Of a stretch of 64,000 nucleotides of DNA, positions 23,714-48,003 are shown one piece after another; the stretch's first letter is position 1; each line of letters opens with the position of its first letter. The stretch spans positions 620 through 64,619 of the forward strand of contig JAGQIK010000677.1 of assembly GCA_020431405.1 (NCBI GenBank), read 5' to 3'. The translations under genes and the position numbers were made by a program. Below the pieces are notes generated by a model. That model did not search any database and had not been told where the DNA came from. It saw only the letters and a program-made list of their open reading frames with translations. This stretch comes from Myxococcales bacterium (GTDB lineage Bacteria > Myxococcota_A > Polyangia > GCA-2747355).

Positions 23714-23714
23714 A

Positions 23715-31400: not shown

Positions 31401-34400
31401 CCGCGTTGACGTTGACAGCCATGGGCGACGAGGTGACGCCCTGGAAGGTCGCCGTCAGCGTCGGGTCGGTGCCGGCCGAGGCTGCGTTGGTCGCGGCGAT
31501 GTTGCTGCCCGAGGCGATGCTGAGCTTGGACGGATCGCTGCTGGCGAAGCTGATTCCGGTCGGATTGACGGCGGTCGTGCTGTCCGAGTAGGTCACCGTC
31601 GCCTGCAGCGCGACCTCGATGCCCACCGGGTAGCCGACGGTGCTTGACGGCAGCAGGGCCGTGATGGCCACGCTCGACACCGTCTTGCCCGTGATCGCGA
31701 GCGAGGCCTGCGCGGTCTGGCTGCCGTAGGTCGCGGTGACCGTGGTCGAACCGCTCGTGGTGCCGCTGTGCGAGAAGCGTTCGGCCGGCAGCGTCGCGGC
31801 CGGAGCGGTGGCCGCAGCGTGCGCGAGGCCAGCGATGGATGGCGTGTTGGTCCATGTCGCGAACGGCGAGACGTTGAAGGTGCCGGCGCTGCCGAAGGTC
31901 GCGCGTGCGACGAAGTCCTGCGCCGCGCCGCGGTTGACCGACGCGGTGGCCGGCTCGACGACGAGCGCCGTCATCGCTGCAGAGCTCGCGCTGACGGCGA
32001 CGCTGTCGCTCTTGGTCGTGCCGCCGCAGGTGCCCGAGGAGACGGAGAAAGTGACGCTGCCGCAGTTGGCCGTGCCCACCGTGAGCATCCAGCTCGCCGG
32101 ATCGACGGCATAGCCGGCGCAGCTGCCGACGCTCCAAGAGCCGAGCGTGCCGACGGCGATCTGAACCGGGGTGGTCGGCGCGTCGCTGTAGTAGGCCTTG
32201 GCCGTGAGCGGTACGACGACCTGGCGCGGGTACGTCGGGTCCTGCTGATCGATGACGACCTTCTGCAGACACGCGCCGGTGACGGTGAGTGTCGTCGAGC
32301 CCGTGCGCGTGCCGAGCGCGGCCGAAAGCGTGGTGTTGCCGGCGGCGAGGCCGGTCGCCGTGCCCTTGCTGCCCGCCGCGTTGCTGACCGTGGCCACTGT
32401 GGCGTTGCTGCTGCTCCAGGTGACGTGCGCGGTGATGTTGCGCGTGGTCCCGGCGCAGCCCGTGCCGCTGTAGCTGCCGGTGGCGATGAACGGCTGCGTG
32501 CTGCCCTGGTTGATCGAGGGCGAGGCCGGCGAGAGGCTGATGCTGTCCAGCGTGAGCGTGGCGCCGCGGACCGTGGCGTTCGGCGCTGCCGTCGCCGGCG
32601 ACGTCTGGCCCCCCTGGGTCGCGGTGACGACGGCGCTGCCCGCGCCGACGATCGTCACGACGCCGCCGGTGGCCGTCGCGACGGTGGCACTGGTGGTGCC
32701 CCACGACGCCGTCGACGTCACGTCGCCAGTGGTGCTGTCAGAGAACGTCGCCGTTGCCGTGCAGTTGACCTTGTAGCCGATACCGCTCGGCAGACAGTCG
32801 AGCGGCGCCGCGCAGGTCACGGCTATGGAGCTTATCTGCGTGTCTTTGACCGTGACTTTGGCGAACGAGACGATCTGACCCAGCCTCGCCATCAGGTAAC
32901 CGGCGCCGCCGGAGAGGCTCGCTGTCGAGGTCGCGCCGGTGACGTTGCCAGCGACGACGGTGAAGTGGCCGATAGGGGTTTTGGCCGTGGGGTTGTCGAC
33001 GGCGATCCAAGTCACTGACTGGGTGATGTCGAAGGTGCTGCCGTCACTGTAGTTGCCCGTCGCGCTGAACTGCCGCGACTGGCCGACGTTGACGGTATCT
33101 GACCCTGGCGTGATCGTGATGCTCGACAGCGACACGCCGGTCTTGACGGTCACGTCGACAGCGGTGGAGGTGATCGTCTGGCCTTGCGAGTTGACGGCCT
33201 CGGCGGTGATCTGCGTCGTGCCGCCGGCGACGGCCGTCGCGAGCCCGACGGGCGTGACGTTGCTTACGGTGGCGATGTTGGTGCTCGACGAGGTCCACAC
33301 CGCTTGGTCGGTGATGTCCGCCGTGGTGCCGTCGCTGTAGGTTCCGGTGGCGGTGAGCTGGTAGCTGGCGCCGACAGGCAGCTGCGCGGTTGGCGGGTTG
33401 TCGATGGCGATGCCGGTGAGGATCGCGCTGGTGACCGTGACCTGCACGCTGTTGGTGCTCGTCACGCCCATGTAGGTCGCCGACACGGTGGTCGTGCCCA
33501 CCGCCGTGCCGCGGGCGACGTTCTGCGTGAAGCCGACGACGCCGCTCGGCGTGCCGCTCCACGTGGCGCTGGTGCTGACGTCCTGCGTGGTGTTGTCGGT
33601 GTAGGTCGCCGTCGCGGTGAACGTGACGTCGCTGCCGAGCGGCAAGCTCTGCGGAGTCGACGGCTCGATCGTCAGCGAGACGATCGACGCGGTGGTTACG
33701 GTGAGCGACGTGGTGCCGCTCTGGCCCTGGAAGGTCGCGCTGATAGTGGCCGAGCCCGCGGCCACGCCGGTGGCGAGGCCAGGGTTGCTGCCGCCGGTGG
33801 TCTCGACGGTGGCGGCGTTGGTGTCCGACGACTGCCACGACGCCGCCGACGTGATGTCCTGCGTCGACTGGTCGCTCATCGTCGCGATGGCCTTGAACTG
33901 CTGCGTCGCGCCCTTGGCGATGGAGGCGGTCGCCGGCGTGACCTGAATGCTGACGACTACCGCGGCAGTGACGACGACGGTGAGCTTGCCAGTCTTGCCG
34001 CCGAAGGCCGCCGAGATGTCGGCCGAGCCGGCGGCCACGCCGCTGACCTCGCCCTTGGTGGTGGTGCTATCGACGGTGGCGATGGTCGCGTCCGATGTCG
34101 TCCACGTCGCCTGGCTGGTGACATCCTGCTTGCTGCCATCGCTGTAGATCGCCGTGGCGGTGAGCTGCACCGTTCCGCCGATGTTCACCGAGGGGCTCGC
34201 CGCGGTGACCTCGATCTTGTCGAGCGTGGCGTCGGTGACGTCGAGCGTGGTGCTGCCGGACTTGCCCGCGAGGCTCGCTTCGATGGTCGCTGTGCCCTTG
34301 GCCAGCGCGGTGGCGAGGCCGAGGGCGTCGATGGTGGCGATGGACGCGCTCGACGAGCTCCAGGTCACCTGACTGGTGACATCCTGCTTCGACTGGTCGG

Positions 34401-35097
34401 TGAGGATCGCCTCTGCCTTGAACTGCTGCGTCGAGCCAGCGGCGACGCTAGGGTTGACCGGCGTGACCTCGATCTTGTCGATCTCGGCCGCCACCACGAG
34501 CGCCGCGGTGCCCTTGACGCCGGAGAGATCCGCTGTGATGTCGGCCGTGCCCTCGGCCTTGGCCGTTGCTAGGCCTTTGCTGTCGACCGTGGCGACGCTC
34601 TCGTTGCTGGAGCTCCAGGTCACCTTGTCGCTGACCTTCTCGGTGGTGCCGTCGTCGTAGTTGGCGGTGGCTTCGAACTGCTGCGTCGTGCCCGAGGCGG
34701 CCTTGGTCGTGGGTGGCGTAACCTGCAGCGCGATGACCTTGCGCTCCTTGACGGTCAGGCTGGCCGTGCCTTTGGTGCTGCCGACCTCGGCGGTGATGGT
34801 CGCGTCACCCGCCTTGACGCCCGTCGCCGTGCCGTTGGAGACGGTGGCCACGGACTCGGAGCTCGATGACCACTTGGCTTCGCTGGTGACGTCTTTGGAG
34901 CTGCCATCGCTCTGCTCGCACGTCGCGACGAAGCGCTGCGTCGCGCCGACGCTGATGGTTGCTGACGATGGCTGCACTCTGATCGTGCTGCACGAGCTGC
35001 CGCCTTCGTCGCCGCCGCAGCCCGCCTGTGCGGCCACGAGGGCTAGGATCGCTCCTGCAAACGCCACCTTGATCGAGATTCGATGCACCGAAGCCAT
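28483..35097 (-). CDS. giant cell-surface lipoprotein made of ~25 tandem bacterial Ig-like (Big_2) domains, 2205 aa
   Basis: ATG at 35097..35095 preceded by AAGGAGGG. Signal plus lipobox MASVHRISIKVAFAGAILALVAAQAGCGGDE. Repeated ~85-aa units of the Big_2 type (IxVxPxxxSIAxGxTQQFxAxAxYSDGSxxDVTSxAxWSSSxxSVATVxxxGLATAxAAGTAxISA). The ORF-table entry 28483..36669 is this frame spuriously extended by 524 codons across the antisense of the next two genes. Confidence 0.85.
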   Translation of the reverse strand: MASVHRISIKVAFAGAILALVAAQAGCGGDEGGSSCSTIRVQPSSATISVGATQRFVATCEQSDGSSKDVTSEAKWSSSSESVATVSNGTATGVKAGDATITAEVGSTKGTASLTVKERKVIALQVTPPTTKAASGTTQQFEATANYDDGTTEKVSDKVTWSSSNESVATVDSKGLATAKAEGTADITADLSGVKGTAALVVAAEIDKIEVTPVNPSVAAGSTQQFKAEAILTDQSKQDVTSQVTWSSSSASIATIDALGLATALAKGTATIEASLAGKSGSTTLDVTDATLDKIEVTAASPSVNIGGTVQLTATAIYSDGSKQDVTSQATWTTSDATIATVDSTTTKGEVSGVAAGSADISAAFGGKTGKLTVVVTAAVVVSIQVTPATASIAKGATQQFKAIATMSDQSTQDITSAASWQSSDTNAATVETTGGSNPGLATGVAAGSATISATFQGQSGTTSLTVTTASIVSLTIEPSTPQSLPLGSDVTFTATATYTDNTTQDVSTSATWSGTPSGVVGFTQNVARGTAVGTTTVSATYMGVTSTNSVQVTVTSAILTGIAIDNPPTAQLPVGASYQLTATGTYSDGTTADITDQAVWTSSSTNIATVSNVTPVGLATAVAGGTTQITAEAVNSQGQTITSTAVDVTVKTGVSLSSITITPGSDTVNVGQSRQFSATGNYSDGSTFDITQSVTWIAVDNPTAKTPIGHFTVVAGNVTGATSTASLSGGAGYLMARLGQIVSFAKVTVKDTQISSIAVTCAAPLDCLPSGIGYKVNCTATATFSDSTTGDVTSTASWGTTSATVATATGGVVTIVGAGSAVVTATQGGQTSPATAAPNATVRGATLTLDSISLSPASPSINQGSTQPFIATGSYSGTGCAGTTRNITAHVTWSSSNATVATVSNAAGSKGTATGLAAGNTTLSAALGTRTGSTTLTVTGACLQKVVIDQQDPTYPRQVVVPLTAKAYYSDAPTTPVQIAVGTLGSWSVGSCAGYAVDPASWMLTVGTANCGSVTFSVSSGTCGGTTKSDSVAVSASSAAMTALVVEPATASVNRGAAQDFVARATFGSAGTFNVSPFATWTNTPSIAGLAHAAATAPAATLPAERFSHSGTTSGSTTVTATYGSQTAQASLAITGKTVSSVAITALLPSSTVGYPVGIEVALQATVTYSDSTTAVNPTGISFASSDPSKLSIASGSNIAATNAASAGTDPTLTATFQGVTSSPMAVNVNAATLSSMTFSITDGATLGQNVTSPLTVTGVYSNSTSYDISKLVTSSSANASIVAVTTTSAGTAIQTFSTATGGTPITLSFLKDGITNTLGINVSTATVCYSSVAVTPATATLAVGQMQTFVATATDTGSNQTDVTSLGTWSSSAGSVLSNSGGAATFTANAAGAATVTFTLSGANVCMGGDTTKTTISGQASATVGTAAIDTVTITPKVANLPQGEQVQLRALATMTDGTTNVDVTSSSTWSSQQTSTATVSAAGLLSGVGAGTTIISVTTSNGKTDTFIVTVAACAAPAVNASTGGTGNLPVGQNRDFTAQAVYPASGACASFSAAERTFDVTARVSSWQSSATSVASINSSGRATAVAAGSTNISATYRGVTSTNVALDVVAVTLKSLSVSPSPSVSLPIGAGGAQTLTVTAVWTDGSNDYSLDPPVVTWQIANGSVASITGPSAGSANKAYTLTGLAAGSTNFFAQVGTVISNTVSATVSAACITAIAITSPSGNTTLPRGAFFELGYACTTSNGSSLPCTPAFSKSDSNNIIVDPAGGTYAADGAGSIATGATAAQFADLTVTVAGCGGNKTATRRITVGSATLSSIALPATVSMARGTQRTVAATGTYVGGSGAGTYDLSRVATYASTNTGVVAPTSPNPGSGAVTSTTTAGTAVVTASLLGVTSNASAVTVSGKVLTGLTISATASFISGGTNGGADAQMPAGGWTLPLRATGHYSAGPDDDLTDSVTWTLGTPVVSGTAISAAGVVSSGTPSAQSTQTVMAALSGQSDTFTISIQPGAISTIAIVSSTGGTPSASVANGLQVPYAAHVTLLGGSKYWGTANVTWASSNTSTGTVVASGAGAGTFTAAAVGSTNLSASRGGAASGPLAVSVTAATPVSVRCEPAQVSIVPGGTAQLRAYVTLSDSSENEITTDTQTSWTSSGTGVADFVTPASPGLLTGVAAGSAFAVPSYGGVTASGANRCSVTVQ

Positions 35098-36527: not shown

Positions 36528-38129
36528 GTGCCGCGCGCGGCCTGGCCCTTGCTTCGAAGTCGCCTTTGCATGGCTGCTTCGAGACGACGAACGTTGGGAG
36601 TCGTCTGTTGGATCGGTCTATACGCCGCCGCCTCGTCCGGGTGCGGCGCGCCCGAGGCGGCGCGCACACGGGTCGACGAGCGACCGGATGGCCTCTATAG
36701 CGGTCTGATGGACGGGAAGTACGACAGCGATGGCCACCTCATCGGTGCGCTGACCTTCGATGCCCGCACCCAGTGCGAGCACGACACGGGCGACAGCGAG
36801 GCCGAAGGATGGGCTGGCCGTCCGGGTGATCACGAGGCCGGCACGCTGTGCCGCGTGGCCACGCCCGAGCTCGGCGGCGGGCGCTTCCGCGTCAACGTGC
36901 GCGCGCTGGTGCACTCGCTCGACCGCGCCGGCGACGGCGACGACGCGTCGTCCGCGGAGAGCTCGCGGGCCCTGACGATCGTCGTGCGCGACGCGGCGGC
37001 CGACCGTGAGCTGGCGCGACGGATCATCGACGTCAGCCGCTTCGAGACGGCCATGACCTACCGCAACCTGGTGGTCGAGGTCTCGCGCCGCGGGCTCGGG
37101 CCGCTCGAGGTCAACGTCGAGTGGTCGGGCCACCACGCGCTGCGCGTCGAGCACGTTCAGGTCTATCGCGCCAAACGGCGCGTGCTGGTCGAGCCGCGCT
37201 CGGGCCTGCTCGCAGCCGACGCCACGCTCAAGCTAGCGCTTTTCGACGCGCCCGACGGATTCGAGCTGCGCCTCGACTGCAATGGCAAGTCGCTCGACGA
37301 GCGCTTCGCCACGCTCGAACAAGACGGCAAGGTCACGCGCGACGCCACCGAGGCAGCGACGGTGGTCAGCCTGCCTGCCGCCGAGCTGCTCGAAGGCTGC
37401 GAGGGCGACGATCTGCGCCTGCGTGTGCAGGTGCGCAACAGCTACTATGCCGTCGCCACGGCACGCGTGACGTACCGCAGCGCCCAGCACCCGTGCACGT
37501 TTGCAGACGAGGGCAAAAAGCCGCGCGTGCTGCTGACCGGCTTCGAGCCGTTCCCGGCGCGCGGCGACAGCGACAACAGCAGCGAACAGGCGGTGCTGGC
37601 CTACCAGGGGCGCGCCGATCTCGATGTGATGCGCGTCGTGCTGCCGGTGGAGTGGGACAGCGCAGCGGCCACGCTGCGCGGCCTGATCGATCGCTGCAAG
37701 CCGGACGTGATCGTGTCGTTCGGGCAAGGCCGCTCGCAGGTAGATGTCGAGACGACGGCCTACAACAGCAAAGACTCGTTCGACATCGCGGGCGGTGCCG
37801 TCGACAACCGCGGCATGCTGTTCGCCGGGCAGCCCATCGTCAAAGATGGCGCCGCCACGCTGAGCACGCGCCTGCCCGCGCAGGACCTCGTCAGCGCGCT
37901 CTCGGGCATCGGCGAGCAAGCCAGCACCAGCAACGATCCTGGCCGCTACATCTGCAATAACCTCTTCTACGAGCTGATGCACGAGGTGGCCGACAGCGAG
38001 CGCCTCGCTGGCTTCGTGCACTTGCCGATCGTCTCCAACGTCGACGACGACGACCGCGAGCGGCTCGCCAAGATCGTGAGCGCCATCGTCGACGGCATCG
38101 TACCGCGGCGCGAGGAGGCGGGCCGCTAG
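36528..38129 (+). CDS. lipoprotein: unknown ~320-aa N-terminal domain fused to pyroglutamyl-peptidase I (Pcp, peptidase C15) domain
   Basis: Lipobox LYAAASSGCG (start possibly the internal Met at 36570). C-terminal PRVLLTGFEPF...DVIVSFGQG...GRYICNNLFYELMH...AGFVHLP matches the Pcp Glu-Cys-His triad context (LxTGFxPF / GxYxCN / GFxHxP). Confidence 0.65.
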   Translation: MPRAAWPLLRSRLCMAASRRRTLGVVCWIGLYAAASSGCGAPEAARTRVDERPDGLYSGLMDGKYDSDGHLIGALTFDARTQCEHDTGDSEAEGWAGRPGDHEAGTLCRVATPELGGGRFRVNVRALVHSLDRAGDGDDASSAESSRALTIVVRDAAADRELARRIIDVSRFETAMTYRNLVVEVSRRGLGPLEVNVEWSGHHALRVEHVQVYRAKRRVLVEPRSGLLAADATLKLALFDAPDGFELRLDCNGKSLDERFATLEQDGKVTRDATEAATVVSLPAAELLEGCEGDDLRLRVQVRNSYYAVATARVTYRSAQHPCTFADEGKKPRVLLTGFEPFPARGDSDNSSEQAVLAYQGRADLDVMRVVLPVEWDSAAATLRGLIDRCKPDVIVSFGQGRSQVDVETTAYNSKDSFDIAGGAVDNRGMLFAGQPIVKDGAATLSTRLPAQDLVSALSGIGEQASTSNDPGRYICNNLFYELMHEVADSERLAGFVHLPIVSNVDDDDRERLAKIVSAIVDGIVPRREEAGR

Positions 38130-38168
38130 CGCGACGGTCTCGGCTCCTCGCTCAGCTCGGCTCCTCGC

Positions 38169-39629
38169 TCAGATGCAAGGCGACATCGAGGGGCAGCGCC
38201 ACAGCGCGGCGCTGCCAGCGCTCTCGCCGACGAACACCAGCATCGAGCCGAGCACCGTCACGTCGTGGAACGCCCCCGTGCCGCTCGCCGTATGCAGGTA
38301 GACCAGCTGAAGCGTCGTCGTCGAGATGTCGACCACCGCGGCGCTAGGCCGGTTCGAGCTGTCGGCGCCGACCACCACCACGAGGCTGGACGTGACGTAG
38401 CGCGCACGCCGAGGCTCGAAGTCTTTGAGCGTGGCGATGGTGTCGAGCGTAGGAGAGGTTGCGGTGCCCGTGTCGAAGCGCCCGACCTTCAGTCCGCTGG
38501 AGCTGCCTGCAAAGGCGATCACGATCGTGCCGCGGCTCGCTGCGGCCGTCGGCGGCGCGCCGATACCGAAGTTGTAGGGCGCGGTAGCGCTGCAGGGGCC
38601 CTGTGTGCAGCTGCTGGGGATGAAGTAGGTCCAGACAAGGTCCATCGCGTCAGCCACGACCACGCGATAACCGGAGTTGGTCGATGGCTCGAGGCTGAGC
38701 ATGCTGTACTGCGGCGTGCCCTGCGTCATTCCGCCGATGGGCGAGAGCGCGCCGAAGCCGATGATGCCGCTGACCATGATGCTGCGGCCGACGATGTTGA
38801 GCCCGCTGGTCCAGGTGGCGAGCATGCCCGTGGAGGCGCCTGCGGCTCGCACGTCGCCGTTGGGCCCGGCCGTGCCCGTCACCGACGACCACGTCGGCGG
38901 CGAGCCGCCCGGCCCCGGCTGAGTGCGTGCGAAGAAGACGCGATCGTTGGCTAGCGGAAGGATGGTCGAGGCTTGCCCCGCGGCGCACAGCGAGGCGGGG
39001 CCATTGCCGCACATCACCGCGTCAGTGGCGAAGCCGCCCGCCAGCGCGCCGACAGGGATCTGGCCGGGGCCCCACTCGCGCGTGAGCGTCCCCTGACAGG
39101 GGCGATAGCCGGCGGCGATGGGTTGGCCGGCAGTGCTGTCGTAGCCGACGACGAAGACGCGCGCGCTGTTGCCGGGCTCGGCAACCACGCTGGTGTAGGC
39201 GCCAGATGTGGCCGACACGCGGTCAAGGCCAGCGGACACGGCGCAGACCGGGTTCAAGTCGGGGCGCGGTCCGTCGGGCGGCGTGCTGTCGGCCACGCTG
39301 TCGGTGGCGTTGCCGTCGCTGGCGCCGTCGACTGTGGTGTCGCTCGTGGCGACAGGCGTGTCGCCGGTTGGCAGGTCCGTGACGAGGCCTTCCGCTGGTG
39401 CGTCGCCTGGCGGGAGGTCCGTGACAAGGCCCTCCGATGGCGTGACACCGTCATTCGTCGCGTCGGCGCTCTGGTCGAGCGTCGATCCAGGCGCGTCGAG
39501 GTTGGCGTCTCGCGCCGTGGCATCGCTCGCGACATAACCGGCGAGCTCGCTGCAGCTGGAGAGACATCCAGCGAGCACGGCGAGCCCCAGCACGCACGCA
39601 CGCGTGATGTCGCGTAGCTCCCTCGACAC
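38169..39629 (-). CDS. lipoprotein, family paralog 1 of 3 (Pro/Asp/Thr-rich linker plus ~330-aa globular domain ending in a Cys loop)
   Basis: GTG start. Lipobox LAVLAGCLSSCS. The linker contains the duplicated 11-mer EGLVTDLPPGD / EGLVTDLPTGD. The C-terminus LWRCPSMSPCI matches paralogs 2 and 3. Confidence 0.6.
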   Translation of the reverse strand: MSRELRDITRACVLGLAVLAGCLSSCSELAGYVASDATARDANLDAPGSTLDQSADATNDGVTPSEGLVTDLPPGDAPAEGLVTDLPTGDTPVATSDTTVDGASDGNATDSVADSTPPDGPRPDLNPVCAVSAGLDRVSATSGAYTSVVAEPGNSARVFVVGYDSTAGQPIAAGYRPCQGTLTREWGPGQIPVGALAGGFATDAVMCGNGPASLCAAGQASTILPLANDRVFFARTQPGPGGSPPTWSSVTGTAGPNGDVRAAGASTGMLATWTSGLNIVGRSIMVSGIIGFGALSPIGGMTQGTPQYSMLSLEPSTNSGYRVVVADAMDLVWTYFIPSSCTQGPCSATAPYNFGIGAPPTAAASRGTIVIAFAGSSSGLKVGRFDTGTATSPTLDTIATLKDFEPRRARYVTSSLVVVVGADSSNRPSAAVVDISTTTLQLVYLHTASGTGAFHDVTVLGSMLVFVGESAGSAALWRCPSMSPCI

Positions 39630-39683
39630 GGAGCTAGTGTGACAGGCGCGGCCGCCTTCCCGCCAGGACTACTCGGGCGGCGC

Positions 39684-41051
39684 TCACGGGTAGCACTGCC
39701 CGCTGGTGGAGAGCGGGCAGCGCGCGACGATCGCCGTGCCGTTGAGCTCGCCGACCAAGAACAACGTGCTGCCCACACGGACGACGTCGTGCAGCTGCCC
39801 GTTGGTCGACGCGATCCACATCGAGCGCGGGTTGTTCAGCGCAGTGTCGATGATCGCGATGTACGGCCGTTTGCCGCCATCTTGGCCGACCACGGCGACC
39901 TCGGTAGGGCCGACGAACCGCGCGCCGAGCGGCTCGAATCCGGAGAGCGCGTTGATCGTCGTGCTGGTCCGGCTGCCCGTGCCATCCATGTGGACCACCG
40001 TCAGGCCGGCGGCGGTTTCGCCGAAGGCCATCACCAGGTCGCCTGAGCTAGCAGCCGCTCGAGCGGAATAGCTGCCGAAGCTCGTGCTGACGACGGGGCC
40101 AGCGGTGCAGTTCGGCGGGCAGGTGGATGGCAGGTTTTGGAGGGCGATCGTGCCCGCGCTGTCGACGTATGTCAGCCGCGAGCGTTGAAGTCCGTCGAGC
40201 TCGAAGGCCAGCGTGGCGAACGGGGAGACCAGCCCTTGTGCCAGGTTGAGCACGGCGATCGGCGTGCCGAGCACACCGCCCGTGCCTCGAAAAGCCAATG
40301 ACAGGATCACGGGGCCATTACCCATGGCCACGATGAAGCCCTGAGGCGATCCGACGATCACCGGGGCCTGCTGCAGGTTGGAGCCGATCGTGGTGTTGCT
40401 CCACGCGTTGGAGGCAGGGGCTGCGTTGGTTGGCAGTGAAGAGGGGATCGCGGCGAAGCCAGTGGACATGCCGCCAGAGATGCCGCTGCCGACGACGGCG
40501 AGGTTGGGCGGCGAGCCGAACAGCACCACGCCGTGGGCCGCGGTCTGCGAGATGGCCGAGAGGCCGATCGCTGCAGGCCCCCAATCAGGCGCGAACGTCG
40601 CCTGGCAGGCGTCGATGCGATAGAGGACAGCGTTCTTGCTGCCGCTGTCGCTGCCGACCGCGTAGATCTTGCGACGGGAGTGGTCGGCGGCAACGCCCAA
40701 CAGCGGACCGCTGGAGAGGGTCAACACGCCGGCACCGGGCGCGCAGATCACGCTGGCGTCTGTTTGCGGCGGCGGCGGGCCGTCCGACAAGAAGACGTCT
40801 ACCGTGAAGTCGGTGGGGGTGCCCGGGATGTCGCCCGGCGGCAGGTCGGGGATCGGCAAGTCTCGCGTGCTGTCTACGGTGGTGTCCGTCGGCGGCCTGT
40901 CCACGGTGATGTCGGGTGGCGGAGGCGTGCTGATATCGGTCGGGCCGTCGGGGATCGGACTCGCGTCGCTAGCCACAAACGGCGCGATCTGCCGGCAGGC
41001 GAAGAGCGCCGTGATGCCAACTAGCGGCGCGATCACGCGAAGGAGTCTCAC
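39684..41051 (-). CDS. lipoprotein, family paralog 2 of 3
   Basis: Probable GTG start at 41051 (VRLLRVIAPLVGITALFAC lipobox). PT-rich linker. C-terminus IVARCPLSTSGQCYP. The ORF-table extension to 41174 overlaps paralog 3 and is rejected. Confidence 0.55.
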   Translation of the reverse strand: MRLLRVIAPLVGITALFACRQIAPFVASDASPIPDGPTDISTPPPPDITVDRPPTDTTVDSTRDLPIPDLPPGDIPGTPTDFTVDVFLSDGPPPPQTDASVICAPGAGVLTLSSGPLLGVAADHSRRKIYAVGSDSGSKNAVLYRIDACQATFAPDWGPAAIGLSAISQTAAHGVVLFGSPPNLAVVGSGISGGMSTGFAAIPSSLPTNAAPASNAWSNTTIGSNLQQAPVIVGSPQGFIVAMGNGPVILSLAFRGTGGVLGTPIAVLNLAQGLVSPFATLAFELDGLQRSRLTYVDSAGTIALQNLPSTCPPNCTAGPVVSTSFGSYSARAAASSGDLVMAFGETAAGLTVVHMDGTGSRTSTTINALSGFEPLGARFVGPTEVAVVGQDGGKRPYIAIIDTALNNPRSMWIASTNGQLHDVVRVGSTLFLVGELNGTAIVARCPLSTSGQCYP

Positions 41052-41070
41052 CTGAAAACTATAGCCTCGA

Positions 41071-42492
41071 TCAGGGGCGGCACTGTCCGTTGAGGCCGAG
41101 CGGGCAGCGATAGAGCGTCGCGCTGCCAGCCGTGGTCGCCGCGTAGAACAACGTAGCGCCGAGCCTAGCCACATCTTGCAGCGTCCCGCTGACGGCGAAG
41201 GTCATGGAGCGGTCGGGCAACAGTGTGCCGGTGTTGATGATCGTCGCGAAGGGCTGGCCTGCCTTTTCGCCGACGACGGCGACCTCGGCGTTGCCAACAA
41301 ATCGCGCGCGGACCGGCCGAAATCCGGCGAGGGCGGTCGGATACTGCGACGAGACCGCACCCGAAGCGCTCAGCTTCGTGACCTTGAGGTGACCTGCTTC
41401 AGCGCGAACGGCGATCACGTCGGTGCGCGCGGCGACAGCGGTGTCGCTGTTGCCGAAGCCAGCGTCGTTGACCGGCGCGGCTGCTATGCAGCTGCCGCTG
41501 AAGCAGCTCGTGGGCACCTCTTGAAACGTCAAGGTGCCTGCGGCGTTGGTGTAGGCCAGTCGCGGTACGGCGAAAGTGTCGGTCGAGAACGCACGCGGGA
41601 CGAATGGGCCGCTGGCCTGCGCTGCGAGGTTGGTGATCACCGTGGCGCTCGATAGCATCGAGAGATTGGAAAACGTCCGGCCAACCAGAAAGGAGCCGTC
41701 GGACCACGCCATCGCCAATCCGGCCGCGAGCCCGACGGCGCGCACTTCGCTGCGAACGTCGTTGCCGAAGAGCGCGCTGTCCCAGCTGGTCGGTGGCCCG
41801 TTGGTTGGCAGGCCCGTGCTGGGCACCGCGACGAAGGCCAGCTGCACGGCGCTCCCGCTGATCTGTTGGCCTACGCCGGTGATACAAAGGGTGCTCGGCG
41901 TGCCGCAGAGCGCCACGTCGGTGGCTGCCGAGACGGTCAACGTGGCCACCTTGATGGTTGCCGGGACCCAGTCGGGGGCAAGCGTGGCGCCGCAGCCGTA
42001 CAAGGCGCTGAGCGACGCGAGGCTGTTGGTGTAGTCGACGCCGACCGCGTAGACCCGCTGGCCCAGAGTGTCGACGGCGAGCGCTCTCAGCTCGCCGCTC
42101 ACGAGCGATGCGGTGGCCGCGCTCGTGATGCAAGCGTTCGTGGCGTCGTTCGATGTATCGGAGACCGCGTCGATGACCTGGCTATCGGGAGCTCTCGCGT
42201 CGGCCGCGAGGTCTTCGCCCACGTCTGCCAATAGCAGGTCGGGGGCGAGATCGCGCCCAGCGCGCTCGACGGCGAGGTCATCGACAGAGGCATCGACAAC
42301 GATGCGTGCGTCGGCGGCGAAGAATGCCGCGATGCGCTCACAACCGCCGAGGCTGACGAGCGTCGCCAGCAGGAGCAGGCTCGACCGTATCACCTCGCAA
42401 GTCTGCCAGAACTCGTCGCTGCGCAGGCTATGATGTCCCCCATGTCGCGCGAGATGCGCAACCTCGTCGAGCCAGGACGCGAGATCGATCAC
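41071..42492 (-). CDS. lipoprotein, family paralog 3 of 3
   Basis: Lipobox SLLLLATLVSLGGCE (the true start is probably internal to the ORF-table start). C-terminus LYRCPLGLNGQCRP. Shared internal blocks (DACQATFAPDWGPAAI in paralog 2 vs GCGATLAPDWVPATI here, and the RCP..CxP end) are visible across the family. Confidence 0.55.
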   Translation of the reverse strand: MIDLASWLDEVAHLARHGGHHSLRSDEFWQTCEVIRSSLLLLATLVSLGGCERIAAFFAADARIVVDASVDDLAVERAGRDLAPDLLLADVGEDLAADARAPDSQVIDAVSDTSNDATNACITSAATASLVSGELRALAVDTLGQRVYAVGVDYTNSLASLSALYGCGATLAPDWVPATIKVATLTVSAATDVALCGTPSTLCITGVGQQISGSAVQLAFVAVPSTGLPTNGPPTSWDSALFGNDVRSEVRAVGLAAGLAMAWSDGSFLVGRTFSNLSMLSSATVITNLAAQASGPFVPRAFSTDTFAVPRLAYTNAAGTLTFQEVPTSCFSGSCIAAAPVNDAGFGNSDTAVAARTDVIAVRAEAGHLKVTKLSASGAVSSQYPTALAGFRPVRARFVGNAEVAVVGEKAGQPFATIINTGTLLPDRSMTFAVSGTLQDVARLGATLFYAATTAGSATLYRCPLGLNGQCRP

Positions 42493-45400
42493 TTTCGCGT
42501 GATCCGGCTACTCGGAGAGGGCGGCTTCGGTGAGGTCTACCTGGCTCGCGACAGCAAGCTGGGGCGCAAGGTCGCGCTCAAGCTGATCCACCCGCGCCAC
42601 GTCGGCTCGCGCGAGGCCATCGATCGCTTCCTCTTCGAGGTTCGCGCCACGGCGCGCTTCAACCATCCCAACATCGTCACCGTCTACGCGGTGGGCGAGC
42701 ATCGCGGCGTGCCCTACGTGGCCCTCGAGTATCTCGAGGGGCAGACGCTGCGCGAGCGCATCAACGAGCATCGGCCGCGTCTCAAGGAGGCGCTGCGCAT
42801 GGCCGCCGCCATCGCGCGCGCGCTCGAGGAGGCGCACCGTCACGGCATCCTCCATCGCGACCTCAAGCCCGAGAACGTTCTGATCCCTGCCGATGGGCGC
42901 CTGCGCGTGGTCGACTTCGGCTTGGCCAAGAAGATCGCCACGCCCGAGCAGCAGGCGCGCGCCGCCGAGGCGCTGCGCGAAGAAGAGCTCCCCGCGTTCA
43001 CGACGCCTACCGAGCCGCTCGACACCGTGCGCGATCTGGCGCTGGGATCCGACCAAACACTGCCACCGGAGCAGGCCCACGGGCTCGCCGCGGCGGTGGC
43101 GCTGGGCGTCGACCGGCCGACCATCGAGCAGCTGACGCTGGCAAGCTACCAGAGCGAAGAGAGCGCGCAGGTGCGCGGTACGCCGGCCTACATGAGCCCC
43201 GAGCAGTGGCGCGGGCTGGCGCTCTCCAGCGCAGCCGACGTGTGGGCGCTCGGCGTGATGCTCTTCGAGATGCTCGGCGGCACGCTGCCCTTCGGCTACA
43301 GCTCTCCGCTCGCCATCGCGACGCAGGTGTGCGGCAAGGAGCCGTCGCCGAGCCTGCCGCCTGGCGGCGCCGGCGACGCGCTGCGCGCGCTGGTGGCGCG
43401 CTGTCTCGACAAGGACCCCGACGCGCGCCCGAGCGCGGCGCAGGTGGCCGAGGCGCTCGAAGCCGAGCTCGGCGGCGGCGTCAAGCCGAGCGACGAGCGC
43501 GGTCCGTTTCGCGGGCTGCTGCCGTTTTCCGAGCGCGACACGGGCCTCTACTTCGGCCGCGAAGCCGAGACCAACGCGTTTCTCGAGCGCCTGCGTGTCG
43601 AGCCTACGCTCGCCATCGTCGGCCCCTCGGGCGCCGGCAAGAGCAGCTTCGTGCATAGCGGCGTCGTGCCGCGTCTGCGCGAGCAGGCGCACTGGCTGGT
43701 GCTGCCGCTGCGACCGGGCGCCACCCCCTTTCGGGCGCTGGCCAACCGCCTGCTTCACGGCGAGCACTCGCGCTCGGCGGCGCAGCGCGCGACGACGATG
43801 CAGCAGCCGCAGGTCGCCGAGGCGCGCGCCCAGGCTGCCGGCGCGGCGCCGCCGGCCAGCGAAGAGGAAACCTCGCAGCGCCGCGGCCTCTTCGAGGGCC
43901 AAGACGTCGAGTCGCTGGCCGCGATGCTCGAGGAGTCGCCGGAGCGCCTCGCGCTGCTGTTGCCGCGCCTCGCGCAGCGGCACGGCGGGCGCGTGCTGCT
44001 GCTCGTCGACCAGCTCGAGGAGCTGCACACGCTCACCGAAGACGTCGAGACGCGGCGGCGCTTCATGCGCGCGCTCGCTGCCGCGGCCGACGACGTCGAC
44101 GAGCCGGTGCGCCTGGTGGTGACGCTGCGCGACGACTTCCTCGGTCGCGTCGCCGAAAGCGAAGCCGCCGCGCGCGTGCTGCGCAACGTCACGGTGCTGC
44201 GCTCGCCGGGCCGGCAATCGCTGCGCGACATCCTCGAGCGGCCTCTCGCGGCGTTCGAGTATCGTTACGACGACGAGAAGCTTCCGGCCGAGATGATCGA
44301 CGCCGTGGTCGACGAGCCGGCCTGTCTGCCGCTGCTCTCGTTTGCCGCCCAGCAGCTGTGGGAGCGGCGTGACCGCGAAAAGCGCGTGCTGCGGCGCGCC
44401 GACTACGACGAGATCGGCGGTGTCGCTGGCGCGCTGGCGACCCACGCTGACGCGCTGCTGTCGGCGATGGCGCCTGGTGAGCTCGACATCGCGCGCAAGC
44501 TGCTGATGCGCCTCGTGACCGCCGAGGGCACGCGCCGCACGGTGGCGCGCGCCGCGCTCGTCGAGGGCCTCGAAGAGCAAGCCGAGCGGGTGCTCGAGCG
44601 CCTCACCGAGGCGCGATTGCTCGCGCTGCGCAAGCCGGACACCGACAGCGAGCCGCACTACGAGCTGGCGCACGAGGCGCTGATCACGCGCTGGGAGCGG
44701 CTCGCCGCCTGGCTCGACGAGAGCGCCGACGAACGCGCCTTCGTCGCGGAGGTCGGCCAGGCTGCCGACCTGTGGCACAAACGCGGCCGTCGCGACGACG
44801 AGGTCTGGTCGGGCGAAGCGCTCGACGACGCGCTGCGCTCGCTGCGCCGCGTGCGCGAGGGCGTTCCGGAGCTGGTGCGACAGTTTCTGGAGCGCGGCAA
44901 GATCGTGCAGAAGGAGCGCGAATCTGAGCAAGAACGTGTGCGGCGTGCACGACGACGGACACTGACCATCGCCACGGTCGTGGTGCTGCTGGCGGTCTCG
45001 ATCTTCGCCACCGCCTGGATGATGCGACTGCGCGGCGAGCGGGTGCGCATCGATCGCGAGCGTGCGCTGGCGCTCGTCGCCGGCGCGTTCAGCCTCGGCG
45101 ACGCGCAGGCGGTCGCGGCCAAGGCGCGCATTCGTTCGGCGCTCGAGCTCGGCGACCACCCCGACGCGCGCCTCGCCTGGTGGAGCCTCGGGCGTCACGG
45201 CCTGCGCTTCGAGAAGCGGCTCACGCGTCAGGCGGTGGCCATCGCTTTCAGCCGCGACGATCGCGGCGTGTGGGTTCTCGATCGCGATGGCCGACTGCGC
45301 CGGCTCGCGCTGCAGCACGACGAGTGGCAGTCCGTGGCGTCACTTGCAGGCAAGCGCCTCGATGCCTTCGCGGTGCTTGCCGATGGGCGCCTCGTCGTGA

Positions 45401-48003
45401 GCTGGCGCGACAAGAAGCGGCGCTTCGTCGCGCTGTGCTGGCCCCAAAGCGGCAAGCTGCAGATCGTCGGGCGCTTGCCGCCGATCGCGGTGGCGCTGGC
45501 GCGGATGGAGGCCAAGGACCGGCGCGTGTGCCTCGCGGTCTACCAGGCGATTCACTGCTGGGACGTGGCGACGCAAAAACACGACGGGACCTTTCCGGGA
45601 GGCAACGCGATGCGTCTGGCAACGCGCTCGAATCTGCTGGCGTCGACGTCGAGCTTTCGCCGCATGCAGATCCTGGTCAACGGCAAGCGCGACCACTCGT
45701 GGCAGGTCTCGGACGAGAGGCATTTTTTCCCGCTCGCCTTCGCGCCTGACGGCCGGTTTCTGCTGCACGGCAGCGGTCAGCGGCTATGGCGCATGTGGCC
45801 GTCACGCCGGGCGCCGCACGTTCTGACCAGCATCTCGGGCAGCATCGCGAACATCGCCTTCGCGCCGCAGGGGTCGCTCGTGGCTGTCGGAACGACGACG
45901 GCTCGCATCCACCTCTACTCGCTGTCGGACGGCGGCGTGCGCCCCGTCGGCCCCGTGCTGACGTGGAAGGCGAAGAACGACCTGGTGGCGCTGCTCGCGT
46001 TCAACAGCCGCGGAACCGCGCTGGCAGCGAGCAGCCGCTCCGGTCGCCTGCGCATCTGGGACGTCACGCTGCGCGGCGGCGAACGCAACAGCGGGCACGA
46101 CGGGGCCATCCGCACGCTCGACGTCAGCAGCAAGGGCGTCGTCGCCAGCGGCGGCAGCGACCACCTGCTCAAGCTATGGCGCCCCTCGCACGCCCACGAG
46201 ATCGCCTCGCGCGATGTCAGCCCCACGAGCATCACGGCGCTGCGCTACAGCCACGCCGGAGACAGGCTCGCCGTGGGTTTTGCCAACGGCCGCGTCGAGG
46301 TCGCCAAGGGCACGCTGTCGCTGAGCGGAGCGGCGTTGGTGCCCCTCGGCGCGTGGGTCAGCTCGCTCGCGTGGAGCAGCGACGATCGCTACCTGGCGGC
46401 AGGTGGCTGGGACGGGAAGGTCGCGGTCTATCGCGACGGCCAGCGCCTCTACCGCTTCGAGCACCACGCCGCGTCCATGGTGTGCGCGCTGGCCATCTCG
46501 GAGGACGACAAGCGACTAGCGGTGGTGTCGTGTCGACAGCGGCCGCCCAACCGCAAGGTCATCGGCGTCTACGATCTCGCCAGTGGTCGACTGCTCTCCA
46601 GCGGCAGCACGCGCAGCCACGCGCTCACCGCCGGCGCCGTGTTTCGCGGAGACACGGTGCTCGTCGAGGACGGGTGGCAAGGCGTGGTCTACTTCCGTGA
46701 TGGCTATGCCTGGCGTGAAGACACGTCACGCCAGCAGTTTGGCGGCAGGATGTTCCTGTTCGACTACGGCCGCCTGACCATGCGTTTGGCGACCAACGCC
46801 CACGACCACATGGCGGCGCTGGTTCTGCATTCGGCCGCTACGCCGCCTCGGGGGCGCTACATCGCGGGCGGCAGCGGCATGATCGTCGACGTCGGATGGC
46901 GTCGTGGGATGATCGCCAGCGGCGACGCGGCTGGCGCACTGCAGCTGTATCGAGCGCCGCGTTATCTGCCGCAGTGGTCGACGTTGATGGTGGGCGGACG
47001 CCGCCGCTACCTCTACACGCGCACGCATCGCATCGATCTGCGGCGCGGCGTGCGCGAGCCGCTGCCAGCGACGCGGTGGATGCGCGCGCTCGGCCAGCGC
47101 GGCCTGATGGCCGCCGAGCATCGCTCGGGGCTGCTCTGCATGGCCGATGACCGCGGCGCGGTCGAGGTCTGGGATACGGCAGCGGACCGCCAGCTGGCGA
47201 CGGTGCGCATGCCGCCGCTCGCGTCGATCGGGATCGTGACGCTCCCAGGACAGCTCTCGCGAGCCATCAGCTATCCGATCTCCGTGCGAGCGATCTTCGC
47301 CGGCGACGCCGACGAGTGTCTGGTTCACGCCAACGAGCGCCTCTACGTCATCTCTCGCGCCGGCAAACGGCGCGACGTGGGCTCCTGCGCGCGGTTTAGC
47401 CAAGCGCCTGGAGGCTTCTTCTGCCAGCGCTGGCGCGACAAGGTCACGGTGATCAGCGCGCGAGGCGACGTGCTGGCGCGCTTCGCCACGCGCGACGTGA
47501 TCGACGCGCTCGTGCGCGACCGAGCGCGTGCAGGCGGCTGGATCGTCGCAGGCCCAGCTGACGCGCGTCGCTACTGGGCGCTGATGCGTGTCGGCGGCAA
47601 GAGCGGTGGAGACGCGCTGCCCGGCGCTGGCGCGCTGCTCGGCCGCGTGACGGCGCTGATGTGGCTCGAGTCGAAGCGCTCTCGCGCGCTTGCCAGGCGT
47701 CTGCTGTTCACGGGCAACAATCGTGGGGTGGTCACCGCGTTTGACGCGCGTCGCCTGCGCGTCGTCGCGCGCTGGAAGCTGCACGGCGTGATCCAGGACA
47801 TCTGGCAGGAGCGTGGCCACGTCATCGTCGTCAGCGCGCAGGGAGACTTCCGGCGCATCGACATCTCGATGCTCGAGATGCCGTACTGTCAGCTGATGCG
47901 CGACGTGTGGCGCGTTACGCCGCATGTCTGGCGCGAGGAGGGCGTGATACCGGTGAGGCCGCCCAAAGATCACCACTGCTCGCGACGGGGCAGCGAGCGC
48001 TGA
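42430..48003 (+). CDS. Ser/Thr protein kinase fused to P-loop (NACHT/STAND-like) NTPase, a transmembrane segment and C-terminal WD40 beta-propeller repeats
   Basis: Kinase subdomains: GEGGFGEVYLA, VALK, HRDLKPENVLI, DFGLAK, GTPAYMSPE. Walker A GPSGAGKSSFV with downstream LLLVDQLEEL. Hydrophobic helix TLTIATVVVLLAVSIFATAWMM at about 44961..45025. After it, repeated WD-like units (RLRIWDV, LKLWRP, GKVAVY...). Confidence 0.85.
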   Translation: MMSPMSREMRNLVEPGREIDHFRVIRLLGEGGFGEVYLARDSKLGRKVALKLIHPRHVGSREAIDRFLFEVRATARFNHPNIVTVYAVGEHRGVPYVALEYLEGQTLRERINEHRPRLKEALRMAAAIARALEEAHRHGILHRDLKPENVLIPADGRLRVVDFGLAKKIATPEQQARAAEALREEELPAFTTPTEPLDTVRDLALGSDQTLPPEQAHGLAAAVALGVDRPTIEQLTLASYQSEESAQVRGTPAYMSPEQWRGLALSSAADVWALGVMLFEMLGGTLPFGYSSPLAIATQVCGKEPSPSLPPGGAGDALRALVARCLDKDPDARPSAAQVAEALEAELGGGVKPSDERGPFRGLLPFSERDTGLYFGREAETNAFLERLRVEPTLAIVGPSGAGKSSFVHSGVVPRLREQAHWLVLPLRPGATPFRALANRLLHGEHSRSAAQRATTMQQPQVAEARAQAAGAAPPASEEETSQRRGLFEGQDVESLAAMLEESPERLALLLPRLAQRHGGRVLLLVDQLEELHTLTEDVETRRRFMRALAAAADDVDEPVRLVVTLRDDFLGRVAESEAAARVLRNVTVLRSPGRQSLRDILERPLAAFEYRYDDEKLPAEMIDAVVDEPACLPLLSFAAQQLWERRDREKRVLRRADYDEIGGVAGALATHADALLSAMAPGELDIARKLLMRLVTAEGTRRTVARAALVEGLEEQAERVLERLTEARLLALRKPDTDSEPHYELAHEALITRWERLAAWLDESADERAFVAEVGQAADLWHKRGRRDDEVWSGEALDDALRSLRRVREGVPELVRQFLERGKIVQKERESEQERVRRARRRTLTIATVVVLLAVSIFATAWMMRLRGERVRIDRERALALVAGAFSLGDAQAVAAKARIRSALELGDHPDARLAWWSLGRHGLRFEKRLTRQAVAIAFSRDDRGVWVLDRDGRLRRLALQHDEWQSVASLAGKRLDAFAVLADGRLVVSWRDKKRRFVALCWPQSGKLQIVGRLPPIAVALARMEAKDRRVCLAVYQAIHCWDVATQKHDGTFPGGNAMRLATRSNLLASTSSFRRMQILVNGKRDHSWQVSDERHFFPLAFAPDGRFLLHGSGQRLWRMWPSRRAPHVLTSISGSIANIAFAPQGSLVAVGTTTARIHLYSLSDGGVRPVGPVLTWKAKNDLVALLAFNSRGTALAASSRSGRLRIWDVTLRGGERNSGHDGAIRTLDVSSKGVVASGGSDHLLKLWRPSHAHEIASRDVSPTSITALRYSHAGDRLAVGFANGRVEVAKGTLSLSGAALVPLGAWVSSLAWSSDDRYLAAGGWDGKVAVYRDGQRLYRFEHHAASMVCALAISEDDKRLAVVSCRQRPPNRKVIGVYDLASGRLLSSGSTRSHALTAGAVFRGDTVLVEDGWQGVVYFRDGYAWREDTSRQQFGGRMFLFDYGRLTMRLATNAHDHMAALVLHSAATPPRGRYIAGGSGMIVDVGWRRGMIASGDAAGALQLYRAPRYLPQWSTLMVGGRRRYLYTRTHRIDLRRGVREPLPATRWMRALGQRGLMAAEHRSGLLCMADDRGAVEVWDTAADRQLATVRMPPLASIGIVTLPGQLSRAISYPISVRAIFAGDADECLVHANERLYVISRAGKRRDVGSCARFSQAPGGFFCQRWRDKVTVISARGDVLARFATRDVIDALVRDRARAGGWIVAGPADARRYWALMRVGGKSGGDALPGAGALLGRVTALMWLESKRSRALARRLLFTGNNRGVVTAFDARRLRVVARWKLHGVIQDIWQERGHVIVVSAQGDFRRIDISMLEMPYCQLMRDVWRVTPHVWREEGVIPVRPPKDHHCSRRGSER

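Follow-up and report, generated by a model that had tools for sequence, protein, structure and literature searches.

A tandem triplet of predicted lipid-anchored beta-propeller proteins in a Myxococcales bacterium

BamB, a lipobox-anchored protein of the Escherichia coli BAM complex, has a single beta-propeller as its globular part and serves as a non-enzymatic protein-binding platform; it consists of eight blades built from PQQ-like repeats (PF13360) and has a short linker. In other E. coli outer-membrane lipoproteins (such as RcsF, Pal and LpoB) a disordered linker follows directly behind the lipid cysteine, and in LpoB it lets the domain reach across the periplasm. Seven-bladed propellers are found in secreted bacterial lectins such as the PLL/PHL lectins of Photorhabdus (PDB 5c9o, 5mxf and 8q81) and CV39L (6gxs). 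The PLL/PHL lectins are soluble, not lipid-anchored, and are made up of seven similar repeats with conserved aromatic sugar-binding residues between the blades. Among the myxobacteria, AglU (MXAN_3008), a gliding-motility lipoprotein of Myxococcus xanthus, is a WD-repeat protein with a WD-type propeller as its globular part. It has been listed among the lipoproteins of the inner-membrane fraction (PMC3222651). The SitA toxins, which are multi-copy and lineage-restricted in Myxococcota, show the order lipobox, disordered region and family-defining domain of ~375 amino acids (aa) (PMC8546572). Here we describe three consecutive genes (A, B and C) from a metagenome-assembled genome (MAG) labelled 'Myxococcales bacterium' (GenBank assembly GCA_020431405.1). 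The window, i.e. the whole stretch of DNA analysed, comprises 64,000 nucleotides of the 65,505-bp contig JAGQIK010000677.1 (positions 620 to 64,619 of the forward strand). The three genes are paralogs, and each is predicted to encode a lipoprotein in which a long acidic tether precedes a seven-bladed beta-propeller.

Paralogy and gene calls

The first-pass annotation of this stretch had proposed a tandemly triplicated lipoprotein family with a shared architecture (lipobox, low-complexity tether, globular domain and C-terminal cysteine pair), and BLASTP and Smith-Waterman comparisons agree on this point. A, B and C are true paralogs: composition-adjusted BLASTP gives 35% identity for A and B (E 2e-62), 33% for A and C (E 1e-31) and 29% for B and C (E 4e-30). 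All three pairwise alignments cover the entire globular domain (~355 aa), so the similarity extends well beyond the linkers. Smith-Waterman alignment of the globular domains alone yields scores of 512, 345 and 301, where shuffled sequences average ~50 (standard deviation ~8; z = 54, 37 and 29). The three-way alignment contains 61 invariant columns and gene C is the most divergent of the three. With the three proteins as tblastn queries, no fourth copy was found in the window.

The duplication appears to be ancient. Pairwise ratios of non-synonymous to synonymous change (dN/dS), another comparison proposed at the outset, are ~0.8-0.9, but the underlying proportions (pS 0.54-0.59, pN 0.47-0.52) are both near saturation and distorted by bias in the GC content of third codon positions (GC3). 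The ratio is thus uninformative and was rejected as a measure of selection.

The bounds of the triplet given by the first-pass annotation match exactly three consecutive maximal open reading frames (ORFs) on the minus strand: 38169-39629 (486 aa), 39684-41174 (496 aa) and 41071-42492 (473 aa). Reading of the DNA together with the database entries points to likely starts that trim A to 440 aa and B to 455 aa. All three are labelled 'hypothetical protein' in GenBank. The features are as follows.

41071-42393, minus strand: gene A, GTG start at 42393, 440 aa, NCBI MCA9672752 (KC503_44470), first of the co-directional set
42340-42393, minus strand: signal peptide and lipobox of A, MIRSSLLLLATLVSLGG followed by C18, PS00013-type match
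42136-42339, minus strand: tether of A, 68 aa, Ala/Asp-rich, no Lys, net charge -11, starting with the motif C-E-R-I-A-A-F-F-A-A-D-A
41074-42141, minus strand: predicted seven-bladed beta-propeller of A, 8 Cys, end ...YRCPLGLNGQCRP, fold by homology to the models of B and C
39684-41051, minus strand: gene B, GTG start at 41051, 455 aa, MCA9672751 (KC503_44465)
40995-41051, minus strand: signal peptide and lipobox of B, MRLLRVIAPLVGITALFA followed by C19, PS00013-type match
40746-40994, minus strand: tether of B, ~83 aa, 24% Pro, 17% Asp and 13% Thr, no Lys, net charge -11, starting with the motif C-R-Q-I-A-P-F-V-A-S-D-A
39687-40748, minus strand: predicted seven-bladed beta-propeller of B, 6 Cys, end ...ARCPLSTSGQCYP, from AlphaFold2 and Foldseek
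38169-39629, minus strand: gene C, 486 aa, MCA9672750 (KC503_44460), convergent with the Pcp-fusion gene
39552-39629, minus strand: signal peptide of C, with two candidate lipid cysteines (C22 behind LAG, which fits the pattern, and C26 behind LSS, which aligns with the lipid Cys of A and B)
39246-39551, minus strand: tether of C, 102 aa, 17% Asp, no Lys, net charge -18, starting with the motif C-S-E-L-A-G-Y-V-A-S-D-A
38172-39248, minus strand: predicted seven-bladed beta-propeller of C, 8 Cys, end ...WRCPSMSPCI, from AlphaFold2 and Foldseek

In the called frames GC3 amounts to 0.83-0.86 and the GC content of first codon positions exceeds that of second positions (GC1 > GC2), which is the pattern of real genes in a window of 70% GC. 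The stop of A lies 19 bp from the start of B and the stop of B 54 bp from the start of C, spacings from which a single operon (transcription unit) is probable. No sigma-70-like promoter was found in the region upstream of gene A, and the scan for sigma-70 promoters and terminators was uninformative; a sigma-54-like TGGCA...TTGC motif noticed by eye upstream of gene A was dropped for its wrong spacing. At the other end of the triplet a perfect 17-bp direct repeat (two copies, 38139-38172) lies across the stop of gene C, reading TGAGCGAGGAGCCGAGC TGAGCGAGGAGCCGAG on the coding strand, and gives a second in-register copy of the stop context.

Lipobox, tether and predicted propeller

The sequence definition of a bacterial lipoprotein asks for a basic n-region, a hydrophobic h-region and a lipobox of the form [LVI][ASTVI][GAS]C, where PROSITE PS00013 places the cysteine at 15-35 and a Lys or Arg within the first seven residues. 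A, B and C are lipoproteins by this definition, as had been noted for each of them: all three carry a PS00013-type lipobox (Cys at 18, 19 and 22) and one or two Arg within the first seven residues. Lipidation and export are predicted from these features. Since C22 of protein C matches the pattern and C26 aligns with the lipid cysteines of A and B, either residue could be acylated.

Right behind the lipid cysteine all three proteins share an 11-residue motif, C-x-x-[IL]-A-x-[FY]-[FV]-A-[AS]-D-A, while the remainder of the tether is too divergent to align. The motif does not recur outside A, B and C in a six-frame translation of the window, and we know of no described counterpart. The tethers contain 17-19% Asp and no Lys (net charges -11, -11 and -18), and their calculated contour length is ~24-37 nm. 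Otherwise their composition differs: the Pro/Asp/Thr-rich linker that had been ascribed to every paralog is indeed seen in B and, in the form of a mixed Asp/Thr/Ala/Pro composition, in C, but the tether of A is rich in Ala, Asp, Val and Leu with 3% Pro and 3% Thr. The duplicated EGLVTDLPxGD block reported earlier was recovered in the tether of C as a tandem repeat of 42 bp x 1.9 (39360-39440). Shorter repeats occur in B (27 bp x 2, 40870-40922) and in A (12 bp x 2), and such short tandem duplications show how readily the tethers change length. In the full-length AlphaFold2 model of C the tether is disordered, with a predicted local distance difference test score (pLDDT) below 50 for residues 21-138.

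The globular domain had been described as Gly/Ser/Ala/Thr-rich and ~330 aa long; the composition holds (Gly+Ala+Ser+Thr 45-47%, net charge near 0), whereas the size is better given as ~354 aa. The shared internal blocks that had been reported are found in the alignment as C-[QG]-[AG]-T-[LF]-[AT]-[PR]-[DE]-W. Each domain has an even number of cysteines (8 in A, 6 in B and 8 in C), which fall into short-range pairs at conserved positions: an N-terminal Cys with the C-[QG]-[AG]-T block, C-x7-8-C (in A and C only), C-x3-4-C and the C-terminal R-C-P-x4-6-C. A terminal loop of the form R/W-C-P-x4-6-C-x-P had been assigned to all three proteins. A and B do end in R-C-P-x6-C-x-P, but C ends in R-C-P-x4-C-I. 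Short-range disulfides, including the C-terminal loop, are probably formed, and because cysteine numbers are even and the pairs local, they would fit an exported protein in an oxidising extracytoplasmic compartment. Only five charged residues are invariant (D34, R191, R277, D321 and R343) and no His, Glu, Lys or Tyr is, which suggests that the three proteins have no catalytic centre in common. Trp accounts for 1% of residues, with only two positions invariant.

By eye the first-pass annotation had recognised no known domain, and sequence models agree: Pfam (E <= 1), NCBIfam, PADLOC and PHROGs return no match for A, B or C. Nonetheless, a fold could be assigned through AlphaFold2, as had been suggested, in combination with Foldseek. 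A seven-bladed propeller consists of ~28 beta-strands arranged as seven four-stranded sheets round an axis. With an alignment of the three paralogs only, the globular domain of B was modelled as all-beta with 25 strands (mean pLDDT 77.8, predicted template-modelling score (pTM) 0.82), and the full-length model of C has 27 strands past the tether. Searched against the PDB with Foldseek, both models match seven-bladed propellers at probability 1.00 over ~360 columns. The matches include WD40 proteins, the prolyl-oligopeptidase propeller, YncE, Ycf48 and the PLL/PHL lectins. The best template-modelling (TM) scores were obtained for the lectins (0.60-0.70, the best to PLL/PHL at 0.66-0.70) and YncE (0.63-0.68), with maxima of 0.68-0.70 for the model of B and a TMt of up to 0.67 for that of C. 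Given that identities are 8-14% and root-mean-square deviations (rmsd) 5-9 Å, the matches identify the fold and not the family. We thus regard the globular domain as a predicted seven-bladed beta-propeller. Profile self-comparison with hhalign shows no internal blade repeat (E 0.42), so the blades have fully diverged in sequence. Identity between paralogs peaks in blades 6-7 (36-47%) and drops to its minimum of 18-34% in blades 3-4, an uneven divergence that would fit a conserved core with a variable region.

Set against the described systems, A, B and C resemble BamB in being lipobox-anchored with a single propeller as globular part; they differ from it in their seven predicted blades, the tether of 68-102 aa, the three tandem copies and the lack of a BAM context, and show neither PQQ-like repeats (PF13360 or PF01011) nor any other match in Pfam or NCBIfam. 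The PLL/PHL lectins and CV39L give the best superposition (TM 0.60-0.70 over ~360 columns), yet with 9-14% identity and an rmsd of 5-9 Å this is no better than for any two seven-bladed propellers. Moreover, no internal repeat like that of these lectins is detectable in the paralogs, which are poor in aromatics (W 1%) with two invariant Trp and have no sequence relative in the PDB at E <= 10, where a profile search gave chance-level hits only (such as ribosomal protein L18 and a Fab chain). AglU shares with them the combination of myxobacterial lipoprotein and propeller; its WD repeats are recognisable, whereas no WD40 model (PF00400 and related propeller models) matches the paralogs in Pfam at E <= 1, and the profile search returned no M. 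xanthus protein. The order of parts is that of the SitA toxins, but A, B and C stop where the propeller is complete, no further ORF lies in the 19- and 54-bp gaps and sequence similarity is absent. As to the tether, E. coli lipoprotein linkers are far shorter, and those of A, B and C are strongly acidic and begin with the conserved motif. MYXO-CTERM, the signal of a group of surface proteins, is a C-terminal Cys motif followed by a transmembrane helix and an Arg-rich tail (PMC11980579). The C-terminal Cys loop was considered as such a signal and rejected, as only 0-2 residues follow the cysteine (...GQCRP, ...GQCYP and ...SPCI) and there is no transmembrane helix or Arg tail.

The earlier suggestion of a lineage-specific family was followed by the search it called for, and no relative from elsewhere was found. 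An exhaustive search of 1.84 billion cluster representatives with a hidden Markov model profile yielded A, B and one 135-aa fragment and nothing else; back-translated pattern scans of the GTDB species genomes and JGI metagenomes found nothing; and word-index searches retrieved the query alone, both for B and for the globular-domain profile at E <= 10. By sequence comparison, A, B and C are an orphan family with no detectable relatives beyond this lineage. This status partly reflects a poorly sampled lineage, because the closest relatives of the neighbouring genes are distant as well: the best non-self match of the kinase described below has 46% identity, and GTDB genomes contain nothing closely related to the Pcp fusion.

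The fragment comes from a second sample and is 98.5% identical to the C-terminus of C. Its source is a 663-bp contig (ENA ERZ27309255 k141_431415) with 99.6% nucleotide identity to the window over 487 bp. The two differences from gene C, both non-synonymous, fall in a single loop (DTGTATSP to DTSTAASP) and hint at amino-acid-level variation (n = 2). Positions 1-176 of the ENA contig are unrelated to anything in the window and join gene C at 38561; the junction reflects either chimeric assembly or a structural variant by which gene C is cut short in another population.

Neighbouring genes

The triplet is flanked by a convergent gene on one side and a divergent gene on the other.

36528-38129, plus strand: Pcp-fusion gene, 533 aa, lipobox AASSG followed by C, pyroglutamyl-peptidase (Peptidase_C15, PF01470, E 1e-24) at residues 333-512
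42394-42441, no strand: divergent intergenic region between gene A and the kinase gene, 48 bp with the annotated kinase start (42442), 36 bp if the kinase starts at 42430
42430-48003 (annotated start 42442), plus strand: Ser/Thr kinase-nSTAND1-transmembrane-WD40 gene, 1853/1857 aa, nSTAND1 PF20703, E 1e-96
48007-50532, plus strand: 841-aa ORF, 4 bp after the kinase stop, with a signal peptide and a weak GH15/oligosaccharide-amylase match (TIGR01577, E 7e-26, far below cutoff)
28483-35097, minus strand: predicted lipoprotein of 2,204 aa, lipobox AQAG followed by C, at least nine Big_2 Ig-like domains

The N-terminal 300-aa region of the Pcp fusion has no family match. To our knowledge an exported, lipid-anchored Pcp is unusual, and a pyroglutamyl peptidase would not obviously act on a lipoprotein whose N-terminus is acylated. 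For a link between the triplet and this gene, adjacency is the sole argument.

In the kinase protein a hydrophobic segment, preceded by an Arg-rich stretch, separates the NTPase from the WD40 array. All six homologs read have kept this segment, so the array is probably extracytoplasmic; a C-terminal Cys...Cys pair is conserved in the same six. As far as we know, it is unusual for a STAND NTPase to carry an extracytoplasmic repeat 'sensor'. The family is large, with more than 1,274 members at E <= 1e-50 (~1,750-1,850 aa). Kaur et al. described nSTAND1 as a novel clade of STAND NTPases in putative counter-invader systems, with kinases among the associated domains (PMC8195603). For A, B and C themselves, PADLOC and PHROGs give no match to an anti-phage defence or phage family.

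The idea that the triplet is sensed by or processed alongside its neighbours, put forward in the first-pass annotation, has only adjacency in its favour. With hhalign no similarity was seen between the propellers and the kinase's WD40 region (E 0.21), and two more distant homologous kinase loci carry, on the divergent upstream side, a 140-aa ORF and a glyoxalase-like gene instead of lipoprotein genes. Furthermore, the large kinase family stands against a lipoprotein family with no member outside this organism. Nor are the propellers similar to the 841-aa protein downstream, and an origin from it or from the adjacent WD40 array was rejected for lack of similarity.

A few further observations concern the surroundings. 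The tail of the 841-aa protein (...PAEPGGCAVARRDTRARPTLVLGAVLALALALALALARTSRSRRRR) looks MYXO-CTERM-like by eye (Cys, transmembrane helix, Arg-rich end), which no model confirmed. The maximal ORF of the 2,204-aa Big_2 lipoprotein reaches 36669 across other genes and is clearly over-long. On the minus strand at 21269-25412, an exported multihaem cytochrome (MtrC/MtrF-like domains) and a gamma-glutamyltranspeptidase are encoded less than 15 kb from the exported pyroglutamyl peptidase, so that two glutamyl-peptide-processing enzymes, the transpeptidase and the Pcp fusion, share one neighbourhood. The wider window holds unrelated genes for an EVE-domain protein, methyltransferases, gamma-glutamyltranspeptidase, a multihaem cytochrome, PfkB, HAD and MBL proteins.

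Location, role and rival explanations

The explanation we favour is that A, B and C are held in the envelope by a lipid anchor, probably in the outer membrane, and serve there as binding modules without enzymatic activity whose specificities have diverged among the three copies. The proteins would be exported and cut at the lipobox, the N-terminal cysteine would be acylated, and the Lol pathway would take them to the outer membrane. The acidic Lys-free tether (68-102 residues) would hold the propeller several nanometres away from the membrane, and the propeller itself (~355 aa) would be stapled by short-range disulfides, with the C-terminal Cys loop adjoining the ring-closing strand. As binding platforms the propellers may recognise protein or glycan, and the three copies may have drifted or been selected toward different partners. 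Anatomy and function combined, we put the probability of this explanation at about 0.5. Its parts deserve different confidence: the anatomical description is very probable, while the reading as an outer-membrane, non-enzymatic binding module is tentative and, taken on its own, rather doubtful. The disulfides, the outer-membrane location, a binding instead of a catalytic role and distinct specificities are what we infer from the anatomy.

Location was judged by the sorting signals of M. xanthus lipoproteins, in which a Lys at +2 marks the inner membrane and an Ala at +7 the matrix (PMC3222651). In A, B and C position +2 is E, R and S (or L) and position +7 is F, F and Y. As both signals are absent, an outer-membrane location is suggested. 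The missing +2 Lys only points to this membrane and does not assign a face of it. The term 'surface protein', as used in the first-pass annotation, therefore goes too far: lipobox and paired cysteines indicate export, and the +2 residue suggests the outer membrane, but nothing indicates the face. No lipoprotein surface-export machinery was found near the triplet. The tether is ordinary in kind, though long, as about half of the E. coli outer-membrane lipoproteins have a disordered N-terminal linker, which contributes to sorting (bioRxiv 10.1101/2021.01.05.425367).

Several points weigh against the favoured explanation. The fold relies on AlphaFold2 with a three-sequence alignment; pLDDT varies between 58 and 78 across the five models, which are poor and least confident in blades 3-4. 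The dN/dS of ~0.8-0.9, being near saturation, cannot demonstrate constraint, and no conserved gene context points to a function. The sorting rule is that of M. xanthus, whereas the MAG belongs to a distant, poorly sampled myxobacterial lineage; the proteins may instead be anchored in the inner membrane, may face either the periplasm or the surface, and may be released through tether cleavage. Finally, the scarcity of aromatics (W 1%) disfavours a multivalent lectin.

Among the alternatives, the least improbable is that the propellers are scaffolds of tethered enzymes (for example a polysaccharide lyase, sialidase-like hydrolase or lactonase) that attack polymers of the envelope or of prey. For C, Foldseek does list the sialidase NanC, a pseudaminidase and the ulvan lyase LOR107, and other exported hydrolase-like proteins (the Pcp fusion and the GH15-like protein) are encoded in the window. 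These matches, however, have low scores (TMq 0.36-0.41, TMt 0.29-0.41) with an rmsd of up to 14 Å; the absence of any invariant His, Glu, Lys or Tyr and of any enzyme family in Pfam or NCBIfam, even at E <= 1, makes this explanation unlikely. A partnership with the divergent kinase, whose WD40 array would have the propellers as ligands, co-sensors or decoys and whose expression would be coupled to theirs through the shared 48-bp region, we consider less likely again. It draws on the short distance between the divergent starts (36-48 bp), on the transmembrane segment conserved in six of six homologs, which would place the WD40 region in the compartment of the lipoproteins, and on the precedent of LpqB and MtrB in Actinobacteria, where a lipoprotein propeller works with a neighbouring sensor kinase. 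Against it stand the absence of sequence similarity between the two kinds of propeller, the mismatch in family size and the two kinase loci without lipoproteins. In addition, the closest kinase homolog (46%) derives from an NCBI MAG, and a library including NCBI MAG proteins gave no relative of the lipoproteins. A bolder version is somewhat more far-fetched: fast-evolving or recently born propellers, confined to this lineage, could be tethered bait or co-receptors through which a STAND-type conflict or signalling system reads the envelope, with the post-cysteine motif as a new sorting or docking tag.

The lipoproteins might also be cargo of outer-membrane exchange or kin discrimination. Lipobox, disordered region and ~355-aa domain resemble the N-terminal part of SitA, whose 'escort'-sized domain has ~375 aa (PMC8546572), and the family is fast-diverging, multi-copy and lineage-restricted. 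Yet the proteins stop 2-11 residues past the last propeller strand and have no C-terminal toxin domain, none of the three genes is followed by a small immunity-like gene, and the profile search of 1.84 billion proteins gave no relatives, SitA included, which leaves this explanation very improbable. Least probable of all is that the triplet is non-functional, i.e. long ORFs that are mere by-products of a genome of 70% GC, or pseudogene copies in decay. Long ORFs on both strands throughout the window, the dN/dS values and the absence of homologs elsewhere might be read in this way. At only 29-35% identity, however, the three copies have kept their architecture, intact frames, signal peptides, cysteine positions and 61 invariant columns. 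The coding pattern (GC3 0.83-0.86, GC1 > GC2) appears in the called frame only, the predicted fold is confident, and gene C recurs in a second sample at 99.6% nucleotide identity.

Summarizing, A, B and C represent a new sequence family within the known class of lipid-anchored beta-propeller envelope proteins, one that is otherwise absent from domain libraries and protein collections. For an apparently domain-less, Gly/Ala/Ser/Thr-rich protein, a fold could be assigned from three paralogs alone. As a well-documented family of hypothetical proteins from a poorly sampled lineage, the triplet is useful for annotation and answers no open question. If the post-cysteine motif is a sorting or docking signal, the family would bear on the routing of myxobacterial lipoproteins; if the propellers are partners of the transmembrane STAND kinase, it would bear on envelope sensing by STAND-type systems.

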